DNA from: Klebsiella phage RCIP0020
Direction: 5' to 3' (one strand)
DNA length: 64,000 nucleotides
Sequence record: OR532814.1
Numbering within the stretch: position 1 is the stretch's first letter; each line of letters opens with the position of its first letter. Shown here in pieces: positions 11,833-12,083 of the stretch. Under the pieces are notes generated by a model. The model did not search any database, was not told the DNA's origin, and was given only the letters and a program-made list of their open reading frames with translations. The position numbers and the translations under genes are program-made.

Positions 11833-12083
11833 AATAATTATTATAATTATTATAATTAATATTAAATTAGATCTTGAATTTATAAATGATTTATGATAAA
11901 ATTTATTAATTATAATTATTATAGACCAAATAATTTTTGAAATCAAGTAAAAATAAATTTGATTTTATTAATTAGATTATGTATAATATTCTTTTAATAA
12001 TATATTATATTAGATCAATTTAAATTTGACTACAAATTAATATAGTATATTATAGATCAACTGGGTAAATTGGTGAGTATGTT
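11833..12083. repeat. ~250-bp, ~85 % AT region with short direct repeats and periodic TAGATC-like iterons upstream of uvsY; candidate origin/promoter region
   Basis: tataattat repeats; (A/T)TAGA(T/C)(C/T) at ~11868, 11921, 11962, 12011, 12053; GATC at 11870, 12013, 12055; TTGACT..TATTAT promoter-like hexamers. Confidence 0.5.

Follow-up and report, generated by a model that had tools for sequence, protein, structure and literature searches.

A+T-rich, GATC-dense islands at three gene junctions of Slopekvirus genomes: candidate replication start sites, one of them in the uvsY promoter region

Introduction

Replication origins have been defined experimentally in T4 itself and only poorly in T4 relatives. 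The T4 origins oriF and oriG consist of a promoter and a downstream A+T-rich unwinding element, which can be replaced by a heterologous one; oriE fires from an early promoter, T4 origins have no common sequence, and the UvsW protein unwinds origin R-loops late in infection (PMC3016281). Among the questions that this review leaves open are which factors govern the formation of R-loops and whether R-loops also operate at other origins (PMC3016281). The T4 record annotates oriF at the 5' end of uvsY and gives the uvsY transcript itself as the primer RNA. GATC-rich, A+T-rich origins are also a known design (PMC6090056).

Here, we describe an intergenic block upstream of uvsY in Klebsiella phage RCIP0020 (OR532814.1), located in a 64,000-nucleotide stretch that was analysed as a whole and is referred to as the window. 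The stretch is Slopekvirus DNA (KP15/KP27-like, T4-related), and searching the literature for origins or mapped transcription starts in Slopekvirus turned up nothing relevant. The block belongs, as the third member, to a family of three ~300-bp intergenic islands that are A+T-rich and GATC-dense, and this three-site family appears to be so far undescribed. Its members are the best candidates for Slopekvirus replication start sites. Our reading, which we hold tentatively and at a little under even confidence, is that the island upstream of uvsY is the early uvsY promoter region and probably doubles as a transcription-primed origin of the T4 oriF type.

Results

An extremely A+T-rich island lies between gene 24 and uvsY

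An earlier note on this DNA had singled out an extreme A+T block between gene 24 and uvsY, and composition analysis bears this out. Positions 11833–12083 are 87% A+T (108 A, 111 T, 22 G and 10 C). No other segment of the window reaches 80% A+T per 100 bp, and by nearest-neighbour energy no 100-bp stretch of the window is less stable than the one found here (z = 6.3; next 3.4). Composition and stability mark the island as a candidate DNA unwinding element. It lies within a 312-bp spacer that separates the end of gene 24 (11771) from the start of uvsY (12084), and the first 61 bp of this spacer hold an intrinsic terminator hairpin (11806–11832, + strand), read from the sequence as GGAGTAG/CTTACTCC followed by a T run. 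The hairpin was missed by a simple terminator scan; a homologous terminator is annotated in KP27, KP15 and Matisse, and the element is invariant in 10 genomes. Further to the left, the motif ACGGGGATAATATT (11784–11797), which marks the left edge of all three islands, is invariant in 10 Slopekvirus orthologues.

Repeats of the tataattat type were described as running throughout the block. Tandem Repeats Finder confines the real tandem repeat, a microsatellite of 3.2 copies of ATAATTATT, to the left 30 bp (11834–11862). Its length varies among relatives, the alignment of 10 genomes having indels here, and Roth23 carries a 37-bp deletion within the island. AA/TT helical periodicity and A-tract phasing are absent, leaving no signal of intrinsic bending, and the single-strand DNA fold and dyad symmetry of the island are weak (z = -2.0), a value on which a cruciform or hairpin was rejected for Slopekvirus. 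One arm of a 20-nt inverted repeat (11842–11861/11904–11923) falls within the length-variable microsatellite. Rfam returned no credible RNA family in the island region, and the uvsY island sits at no turning point of the cumulative GC/AT skew.

The gene on the left encodes the capsid vertex protein (gene 24, 10482–11771, + strand; Pfam Gp23 family, E = 6.5e-93), and its KP27 counterpart is annotated as gp24. On the right, the recombination mediator gene uvsY (12084–12503, + strand; Pfam UvsY, E = 2.1e-37) is preceded by the ribosome-binding site GGTGAG (12072–12077, + strand), read from the sequence and annotated in Matisse. The synteny proposed earlier stands insofar as gene 24 is beside uvsY, but uvsW has not moved away: the helicase gene (13356–14855, - strand; Pfam UvsW_N and helicase domains) lies just downstream on the opposite strand, and a pattern search found an exact T4-type late promoter, TATAAATA, upstream of it (14886–14893, - strand). 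The genes inh and hoc come after uvsW, as in KP27. Compared with T4, the uvsY module is inverted and placed beside gene 24; Krischvirus has the T4-like order 26-25-uvsY with a 47-bp spacer and no island. No initiator gene adjoins the island, whose neighbours are gp24, uvsY, uvsY.-2 and uvsW. A phage-encoded Dam, also part of the original description, is present as a D12-class N6-adenine methyltransferase (27178–28029, + strand; PF02086, E = 1.9e-34) and is annotated in KP27 as well.

The island belongs to a three-copy family

In the KP27 genome, 80% A+T or more is reached in three islands and nowhere else, at the junctions rnh|gp55 (island 1), gp3|KP27_206 (island 2) and gp24|uvsY (island 3); their genome positions are 31.3, 100.6 and 135.1 kb. 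They are its three least stable 100-bp segments (z = 6.6, 5.9 and 5.0; next 3.4), with the uvsY island the least stable of all (z = 6.6), and they are also the densest GATC clusters of the genome. The islands are paralogous (z = 6–14 over shuffles), and the uvsY island aligns to KP27 island 1 with z = 11.9 and to island 2 with z = 6.0/7.3. Each KP27 island carries ACGGGG(A/T)T once at its left edge, which accounts for 3 of the 15 genomic occurrences of ACGGGG. The shared traits are a length of ~300 bp, an intergenic position, GATC density, the ACGGGG(A/T)T edge and TTGAnn-17-TAtAAT modules, all of which are found in the uvsY island.

BLAST searches with island 1 or 2 hit three places per genome in most of ~110 Slopekviruses and two in some records. 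IMG/VR yielded few relatives only. Conservation is 99% or higher for islands 1 and 2; the uvsY island diverges faster than both and faster than its own flanks. Islands 1 and 2 lie at or near skew minima, a position that is confounded with a switch of transcription direction.

Predicted tandem sigma-70-type promoters face uvsY

A promoter scan identified three tandem sigma-70-type matches on the + strand: P_a (11874–11902; TTGAAT-17-TAAAAT with a TG extension), directed towards the A+T stretch and uvsY, P_b (11959–11987; TTGATT-17-TATAAT, 10/12 matches), and P_c (12026–12053; TTGACT-16-TATTAT), the proximal uvsY promoter. All three face uvsY, match the consensus at 9–10 of 12 positions and are kept in 10 genomes, with invariant hexamers in P_a and P_c; such matches are frequent in 87% A+T DNA (12 found versus 4.1 expected), and there are candidates on the minus strand as well. 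P_a is paralogous to TTGAAT-17-TATAAT in island 2, an annotated promoter in KP27, and to TTGATC-17-TATAAT in island 1, while P_b is similar to the promoter of island 1 that lies nearest gp55 (AAATTTGATTTT...TATAATATTCTT). The authors of the KP27 genome annotated promoters in the uvsY island, including one at the site homologous to P_c, and in the other islands. Downstream of P_a lie ~170 bp at 87% A+T, the kind of sequence that constitutes the unwinding element of T4 oriF and oriG.

The island was scanned for a DnaA box, an IHF site, a MotA box and an exact late promoter TATAAATA, none of which was found; the best candidate for the DnaA box TTWTNCACA has one mismatch, and the closest sequence to the MotA box TGCTTWA is TGATTTA. 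MotA itself is missing from the KP27 annotation and is absent from RB43 (PMC1524935).

These promoters could be all that the island is for. It would then be a strong early sigma-70 cluster, set in A+T-rich upstream and spacer DNA, for pre-late expression without MotA, with no role in initiation; its paralogues would serve gp55/47/46, rnh and KP27_206, and the fixed GATC positions would confer Dam/SeqA sensitivity. We regard this combination as a serious possibility, if a doubtful one. The absence of MotA and the retention of three consensus promoters towards uvsY in 10 genomes agree with it, as do the KP27 promoter annotations in all islands and the finding that every island precedes + strand genes with pre-late T4 counterparts. 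The blocks conserved among the paralogues are largely promoter modules, and much of what the islands have in common can therefore be put down to promoter function alone. The islands are, however, far larger than promoters need: they comprise 250–370 bp of non-coding DNA in a genome in which most spacers are shorter than 60 bp. Moreover, by the T4 paradigm, a promoter that fires into an unwinding element already is an origin.

GATC sites are over-represented, but individual sites come and go

The five TAGATC/TAGACC-like motifs reported earlier, three of them GATC sites, are present and lie far above shuffle expectation. With 2000 dinucleotide-preserving shuffles as the null, the island contains 3 GATC versus 0.29 expected (P = 0.002), 5 TAGAYY versus 0.54 expected (0 of 2000 shuffles) and 3 TAGATC versus 0.06 expected. 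TAGATC no. 1 (11868–11873), a GATC site that abuts the -35 element of P_a, is present in 9/10 relatives and was lost in K14-2 through a 5-bp deletion. No. 2 (11922–11927) is a mutated TAGATC that reads TAGACC in the window (T->C); it is TAGATC in 8/9 genomes that have the segment, which is deleted in Roth23. No. 3 (11973–11978), within the P_b spacer, is likewise mutated and reads TAGATT in the window (C->T); it is TAGATC in 8/10 genomes and has a G->T change in Matisse. Nos. 4 (12011–12016) and 5 (12053–12058, at or near the P_c start site) are TAGATC, contain GATC and are invariant in 10 genomes.

All five motifs are TAGATC in most Slopekvirus relatives examined. Sites 1–3 are each missing from one or more of the ten genomes; the losses fall in K14-2, Matisse, Roth23 and RCIP0020, which itself has two of them. 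Judging from this alignment, individual GATC sites of the uvsY island are dispensable. Selection on single GATC sites was considered and found unsupported, with 3 of ~12 substitution events in the 250-bp core hitting GATC.

The excess of GATC is a property of the whole family. KP27 island 3 has 5 GATC versus 0.58 expected, and islands 1 and 2 have 9 and 10 versus ~1.1–1.2 expected (0 of 2000 shuffles), which gives a pooled count of 24 versus 2.95 (z ~10). No 6-mer is more enriched in the islands than TAGATC (10 observed versus 0.38 expected). In the paralogous modules, GATC occupies positions -16 to -13 (GATCTATAAT, three copies) or lies directly 5' of the -35 element (GATCTTGAAT), and this placement within shared modules that are themselves promoters again agrees with a purely regulatory role.

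A different explanation is an iteron-type or Dam/SeqA-gated origin, in which TAGATC would be bound by an initiator or by SeqA and methylation would gate firing, as in Vibrio cholerae ori2. Here the enrichment of TAGATC, its five copies in most relatives and the phage-encoded Dam are all to the point, and GATC-containing iterons have precedent (PMC6090056). The details of the island fit this explanation poorly. The spacing of the motifs had been given as 41–53 bp; the measured distances are 54, 51, 38 and 42 bp, irregular and not helically phased, and only the 6-bp core TAGAYY is common to all five copies (the best pairs share 15 nt at 93% and 13 nt at 92%). Cooperative SeqA binding has a GATC spacing limit of ~31 bp, which the smallest spacing in the uvsY island, 38–42 bp, exceeds; islands 1 and 2 do include spacings of 5–14 bp. 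No Rep-like gene adjoins the island, neither a DnaA box nor an IHF site was found in it, and sites 1–3 have been lost one by one. Given the short core, the irregular spacing and the lack of an adjacent initiator gene, we have dropped the label "iteron" and consider an origin of this type very unlikely.

The turnover of these sites could instead indicate a neutral, slippage-prone A+T spacer whose motifs reflect the ancestry of duplicated modules and not selection. The variable microsatellite, the Roth23 deletion, the GATC point losses and the fast divergence of the uvsY island relative to its flanks and its two paralogues are what such a spacer would be expected to produce. Neutrality is hard to reconcile, however, with the retention of three islands in ~110 genomes, the conservation of islands 1 and 2, the GATC excess and the invariant promoter hexamers, and we give this explanation hardly any credence.

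The sister genus has a different element at the same three junctions

In the sister genus Pseudotevenvirus (RB43, RB16, GAP161, Miller and others), the three gene junctions that hold the Slopekvirus islands are occupied by an unannotated 170-bp hairpin element with an A+T core, present in three copies per genome in 63 genomes. No window of the RB43-type genome is less stable than these three copies. The element is 66–69% A+T, folds strongly as DNA (z = -7.9) and lacks a GATC cluster, although the genus encodes Dam. Its cores evolve in concert across the three copies, with compensatory stem changes, and it is flanked by strong sigma-70 promoters that serve the same downstream genes and point away from the element. 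Homology between the Slopekvirus islands and the RB43-type elements was rejected (z at most 2.7), and Rfam contained no credible RNA family for the latter. KP27_206/RB43ORF200w was considered as an element-specific initiator and rejected: the proteins are 74% identical despite unrelated elements and have no Pfam domain.

This arrangement bears on each alternative. A purely regulatory role leaves unexplained why, in each of two genera, the three sites rank lowest in duplex stability and why the sister genus holds a concertedly evolving 170-bp hairpin at the same sites. Special elements at these sites also speak against a neutral spacer, and a Dam-encoding genus without a GATC cluster speaks against an iteron-type or SeqA-gated origin. 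The long hairpins with homogenised cores do imply exchange between copies or a shared reader, a point in favour of a cis site for some other DNA transaction. Such a site could be a hot spot of recombination or a target, for an endonuclease or as a cruciform, from which recombination-dependent replication is seeded. It could also be a place of loading or nicking that turns on late transcription, or it could bind a nucleoid protein of the H-NS type, which the extreme A+T content would favour. Kreuzer and Alberts are said to have found in 1985 that T4 origins coincide with recombination hot spots, which also favours this group of explanations. The weak dyad symmetry and absent A-tract phasing of the Slopekvirus island count against them, no specific factor can be named, and we consider them, taken together, highly improbable.

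Discussion

A transcription-primed origin in the uvsY promoter region, our tentative preference, could operate as follows. Host RNA polymerase would start at P_a and P_b early in infection in these phages, which have no MotA middle-mode system, and uvsY would thereby be expressed early. The transcript would also, in the manner of T4 oriF, invade the ~170 bp of downstream A+T DNA to form an R-loop, which phage RNase H would trim into a leading-strand primer; gp59/41/61 would load onto the displaced strand, and UvsW, expressed late from the TATAAATA promoter of the adjacent gene, would later remove the R-loops. The phage encodes the trans factors of the T4 pathway (rnh, 59, 41, 61, dda, and uvsW with a late promoter). 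The most speculative step concerns the Dam sites, which may mark replicated, hemimethylated copies and so turn promoters or the origin off; alternatively, they may lower duplex stability. The three islands would be redundant origins, which fits the loss of single GATC sites in the uvsY island, the fastest-evolving of the three.

Several points weigh on this preference. A+T-rich RNA–DNA hybrids are intrinsically weak. The fast divergence of the uvsY island, its lost GATC sites and its position away from any skew turning point count against an origin too, as does the promoter-module character of the conserved blocks. As T4 origins have no common sequence, a repeated origin element would be unlike T4. 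Since the promoters of the RB43-type element point away from it, the R-loop mechanism is not directly transferable to the sister genus.

A more far-reaching proposal, which we think unlikely, is that the islands are methylation-switched origins. Fully methylated infecting DNA would fire early promoters into Dam-destabilised unwinding elements; after copying, the hemimethylated GATC clusters would be sequestered or their promoters silenced, which would force the passage from origin-dependent to recombination-dependent replication in a MotA-less T4 relative. As part of the same proposal, the sister genus would use an unrelated, concertedly evolving cruciform at its three corresponding junctions, and origins would be exchangeable cassettes at fixed addresses.

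In both genera, three short loci per genome combine the least stable DNA with conserved addresses, and they are unannotated in more than 170 genomes. That they serve as origins is a concrete prediction open to refutation, and it covers two large genera that figure in work on phages of Klebsiella, Enterobacter and Cronobacter. If the islands are origins, origin position has been conserved while origin sequence was replaced wholesale, and phage Dam may be linked to replication or promoter timing. In practical terms, the islands break short-read assemblies, and for the engineering of these therapeutic phages they stand out as places either to leave untouched or to target.

Comparison with known systems

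PeSL (promoter-early stem-loop) elements are short mobile regulatory cassettes, each with a stem-loop, and lie between early genes in many copies. They resemble the islands as repeated intergenic promoter modules of the MotA-less T4 relatives RB49 and phi1 (PMC2839356). The islands differ in being three, large and A+T-rich, at fixed conserved junctions and without a stem-loop (fold z = -2.0).

With the unwinding region of E. coli oriC, Vibrio cholerae ori2 and P1 oriR, the island shares A+T richness, over-represented GATC and an available Dam. In contrast to these origins, it has no DnaA boxes, initiator iterons or adjacent initiator gene, its GATC spacing is wider than the SeqA limit of ~31 bp, and single sites are dispensable.

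T4 oriE is comparable in its use of an early rather than a middle promoter and in its short direct repeats, and the paralogue at gp3|KP27_206 lies ~2.2–3 kb from genes 53/5, near the oriE map position. Whereas oriE has evenly spaced 12-nt iterons, the island repeats a 6-bp core at irregular intervals of 38–54 bp, and no RepEA/RepEB-like genes, as known from oriE, were identified.

The Pseudotevenvirus element corresponds to the islands in its three junctions, its three copies, its place among the three least stable windows, its A+T core and its sigma-70 promoters. It differs in its unrelated sequence, long hairpin, lower A+T content (66–69%), lack of a GATC cluster and outward promoters.

T4 oriF differs from the island in several respects. 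The island has no MotA box, and its promoters are tandem early sigma-70 types; the oriF unwinding element is a 5' coding region behind a 76-bp spacer, whereas the island is 250 bp of non-coding DNA upstream of the gene; the upstream neighbour is gene 24 at the island and gene 25 at oriF; and the island is dense in GATC and is one of three paralogues, in contrast to the origins of T4, which have no motif in common. The likeness lies in the layout. As in oriF and oriG, a promoter is followed by easily unwound A+T DNA, here 5' of uvsY, the would-be primer transcript would be the uvsY mRNA too, as at oriF, and the phage encodes RNase H, gp59, gp41/61, Dda and a late-expressed UvsW. The original suggestion of an ori-uvsY analogue, shorn of its iteron label, draws partial support from this oriF/oriG anatomy, from the place of the island in a paralogous set with the lowest duplex stability in the genome, and from the elements, likewise least stable, that the sister genus carries at the same sites.

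An A+T-rich GATC island between gene 24 and uvsY

Positions 10482-12700 of the window are 98% identical to phiEap-3, KP27, KP15, and more than 100 other genomes (BLAST) of Slopekvirus, T4 relatives with 42% G+C that infect Klebsiella and Enterobacter. Pfam places gp24 at 10482-11771 and UvsY at 12084-12503, separated by a 312-bp spacer whose first 61 bp hold the gene-24 terminator hairpin (11806-11832). The following block, 11833-12083, is 87% A+T; nowhere else in the 64-kb window does A+T content per 100 bp reach 80%, and the window's lowest-stability 100-bp duplex also lies here (z = 6.3; next 3.4). 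The block carries five TAGAYY motifs (sites 1-5, at 11868, 11922, 11973, 12011, and 12053), three of which include GATC. In 2000 dinucleotide-preserving shuffles, GATC was expected 0.29 times against three observed (P = 0.002), and TAGAYY 0.54 times against five, a count reached in no shuffle. These excesses, together with the outlying composition and stability, indicate that the GATC island is real and non-random. An earlier note had likewise described a block far richer in A+T than its surroundings, with three GATC sites among five motifs; the motifs are spaced by 54, 51, 38, and 42 bp rather than by the 41-53 bp it gave. Its description of a block built of tataattat-type direct repeats applies to 11834-11862, where ATAATTATT recurs 3.2 times as the sole true tandem repeat, and fails for the remainder.

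UvsW (Pfam; 13356-14855, minus strand) is encoded directly downstream on the opposite strand, followed by inh and hoc, which contradicts the proposed relocation of uvsW. About 30 bp upstream of uvsW lies an exact T4-type late promoter, TATAAATA (14886-14893, minus strand), in agreement with late expression of UvsW in T4. The phage does encode its own Dam methylase (27178-28029), which Pfam assigns to the D12 class. A SegD-like GIY-YIG homing endonuclease (Pfam; 9811-10449) separates gp23 and gp24 in the window, KP27, and KP15, and is missing from KLB13, where gp24 directly follows gp23 (segment L002, 414-500); its presence or absence is thus polymorphic next to the island. The annotation of KLB13 uvsW (L002, 3122-3208) marks the gene as interrupted, with the comment "unable to determine intron boundaries", which suggests an intron or mobile insertion within uvsW of some Slopekviruses.

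Predicted promoters and sequence variation

A promoter scan identified three sigma-70-type promoters 3' of the gene-24 terminator, all directed at uvsY: P_a (TTGAAT-17-TAAAAT with a TG extension, 11874-11902), P_b (TTGATT-17-TATAAT, 11959-11987), and P_c (TTGACT-16-TATTAT, 12026-12053), the last followed by a GGTGAG ribosome-binding site and the uvsY ATG. The KP27 annotation enters the P_c equivalent and one minus-strand candidate as promoters. Pattern searches of the island found no MotA box, DnaA box, IHF site, or exact late promoter; an Rfam search gave no match, A-tract phasing was not detected, and dyad symmetry is weak (z = -2.0). The island very probably serves as an early uvsY promoter region, and an additional origin function, suggested by analogy, is a tentative candidate role. 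In short gaps that separate early genes elsewhere in KP27, about twenty MEME "putative middle promoters" overlap predicted terminators (for example 3098-3131, 9750-9783, 10501-10533, and 25009-25030 in segment L009, with many more in L010). This pairing of promoter and stem-loop recalls the PeSL cassettes of RB49/phi1, with no MotA annotated in KP27.

In an alignment of ten Slopekvirus orthologues, all five sites read TAGATC in most relatives. Point mutations have removed two of them from the window phage (TAGACC at 11922, TAGATT at 11973), site 1 is gone from K14-2 through a 5-bp deletion, site 3 from Matisse through a G->T change, and site 2 is deleted entirely in Roth23. No changes occur at sites 4 and 5 or in the promoter hexamers, except for the P_b -10 hexamer of Matisse (one T->A); the left microsatellite varies in length. 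Three of about 12 substitution events in the 250-bp core strike GATC, so single GATC sites are not visibly under stronger constraint than their surroundings. An iteron/initiator reading, to which the repeated TAGAYY motifs would correspond, is weak and very improbable. Relative to nine relatives, the private changes of the window phage comprise the destroyed GATC sites 2 and 3 and a 1-bp deletion at ~11988, just after the P_b -10 hexamer, which suggests relaxed constraint or changed regulation of this copy.

Three paralogous islands in Slopekvirus genomes

In the complete KP27 genome, A+T content per 100 bp reaches 80% in exactly three islands: island 1 (31179-31470) between rnh (minus) and gp55 (plus), island 2 (100485-100758) between gp3 (minus) and KP27_206 (plus), and island 3 (134958-135270) between gp24 and uvsY, the counterpart of the window island. 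They constitute the three lowest-stability 100-bp windows of the genome (z = 6.6, 5.9, 5.0; next 3.4) and its densest GATC clusters (9, 8-10, and 5 sites versus 0.6-1.2 expected; 0 of 2000 shuffles as high). Genome-wide, GATC matches the Markov expectation (ratio 0.99), yet it is concentrated in the islands, where, pooled, it is the top-enriched 4-mer (24 versus 2.95 expected) and TAGATC the top-enriched 6-mer (10 versus 0.38; 10 of the 32 genomic copies). The KP27 genome as a whole (segments L009-L012) shows strong avoidance of CTAG (observed/expected 0.40) and moderate avoidance of AGCT (0.59).

Local alignment compared with shuffles shows that the islands are paralogous (3 versus 1, z = 11.9; 3 versus 2, z = 6.0-7.3; 1 versus 2, z = 14.1), with islands 3 and 1 collinear across ~190 bp. 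Among the modules common to the islands are a left edge, ACGGGG(A/T)T; a promoter module, TTGAnn-17-(GATC)TATAAT; the motif TCAAGTA; and a module of the form AAATTTGATTTT...TATAAT. That this similarity consists largely of promoter modules speaks against an origin function in addition to promoter activity. A promoter-only or regulatory island, in which fixed GATC positions would make the promoters Dam/SeqA-sensitive, is a strong rival that we consider possible, if doubtful. With island 1 or 2 as BLAST query, most of ~110 Slopekvirus genomes gave three places each and some gave two. Identity of islands 1 and 2 is 99% or higher in almost every one of these genomes, and island 3 varies clearly more across the same genome pairs; that it evolves fastest and tolerates GATC loss likewise counts against the dual role.

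Public assemblies terminate within islands far above chance frequency (cases include L026 and L029): phiKp_1, phiKp_19, phiKp_9, PSKm4DII, and one IMG/VR contig end in island 3 (window ~11890-11977), phiKp_23 in island 2, and one Pseudotevenvirus metagenome contig in its own hairpin element. On the simplest view, coverage was low or repeats broke the assembly where the DNA is extremely A+T-rich or paralogous; the ends may also be real preferred DNA ends.

Hairpin elements at the same junctions in Pseudotevenvirus

In RB43, from the sister genus Pseudotevenvirus, the genes at the three junctions are ordered identically, and neither an island of at least 80% A+T nor a GATC cluster is present there. 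Each junction (rnh|55, gp3|ORF200w, 24|uvsY) harbors one copy of a ~170-bp element (L013, 32560-32730; L015, 3660-3830 and 38385-38545) consisting of GAGCGAAGCGA...CACGAACGAAGTGAGTG, a short stem, an A+T core, a return stem, and TCGCTTCGCTC. The element folds into a long DNA hairpin (z = -7.9), and its copies are the three lowest-stability windows of RB43 (z = 4.6, 4.4, 4.3; next 3.8). Three copies per genome, none of them annotated, are present in 63 Pseudotevenvirus records; the databases hold no features beneath RB43-type elements. Between RB43 and GAP161 (L036, 989-1311; L037, 1909-2176; L005, 624-888), the inner stem differs in sequence yet is complementary in each and identical across a genome's three copies, whereas the outer parts show copy-specific orthology; the element core therefore evolves in concert. 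A more distant clade of IMG/VR contigs (UvsY 71-74% identical) has elements of this kind whose arms show additional compensatory changes (L031/L032, ~1160-1400). In this clade, a 59-aa ORF with CxxC pairs, absent from Slopekvirus and RB43, lies between element and uvsY (L031, 1216-1395).

Slopekvirus islands and Pseudotevenvirus elements have no detectable homology. Island 1 of KP27 contains a perfect 18-bp palindrome, ACTACAATGATCATTGTA(G), with GATC at its centre (L009, 31289-31306), whose arms are similar to the inner stem (ACTACA/TGTAG) that the RB43 element has at this junction, possibly a remnant of common ancestry. Krischvirus lacks such an island; its gene order, 26-25-uvsY, is that of T4, and the spacer is 47 bp long. 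The three least-stable non-coding elements occupy the same addresses in two genera with wholly different sequences, a pattern that argues for a cis-acting role, linked to position and to an unstable duplex, over and above that of ordinary promoters. RB43 copies 1 and 3 lie between divergent 11/12-match promoters directed away from the element, one of them antisense to gene 24, so the mechanism there must differ; it could involve supercoil-driven opening, cruciform extrusion, or a protein reader. In the literature covered, we found no description of either triad; the KP15/KP27 genome paper (PMC5219037), the RB43 comparative paper (PMC1524935), and the T4 origin review (PMC3016281) mention neither.

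Comparison with known origins

Of the three islands, only 1 and 2 lie at skew turning points, and there the direction of transcription is a confounder. GATC-rich, A+T-rich origins include oriC and P1 oriR. V. cholerae ori2 is of the same type (PMC6090056). In T4, oriF and oriG combine a promoter with a downstream A+T-rich unwinding element, which is sequence-independent and replaceable; oriE relies on an early promoter, all three origins lie near transcription-strand switches, and UvsW later removes the R-loops (PMC3016281). In the T4 database record, oriF lies at the 5' end of uvsY and the uvsY transcript serves as the primer RNA. Trans factors of this pathway are encoded in KP27 (rnh, 59, 41, 61, dda), as is uvsW with its exact TATAAATA in the window; MotA is absent from the KP27 annotation and from RB43 (PMC1524935).

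The Slopekvirus island matches the T4 R-loop origin in its succession of predicted tandem early promoters, ~170 bp of 87% A+T DNA, and uvsY. Since such an origin is the best-known function of this anatomy in the virus family, we tentatively favor a dual role, in which P_a-P_c would fire through the ~170 bp of A+T DNA into uvsY and the early promoter region might also act as one of three redundant transcription-primed origins.
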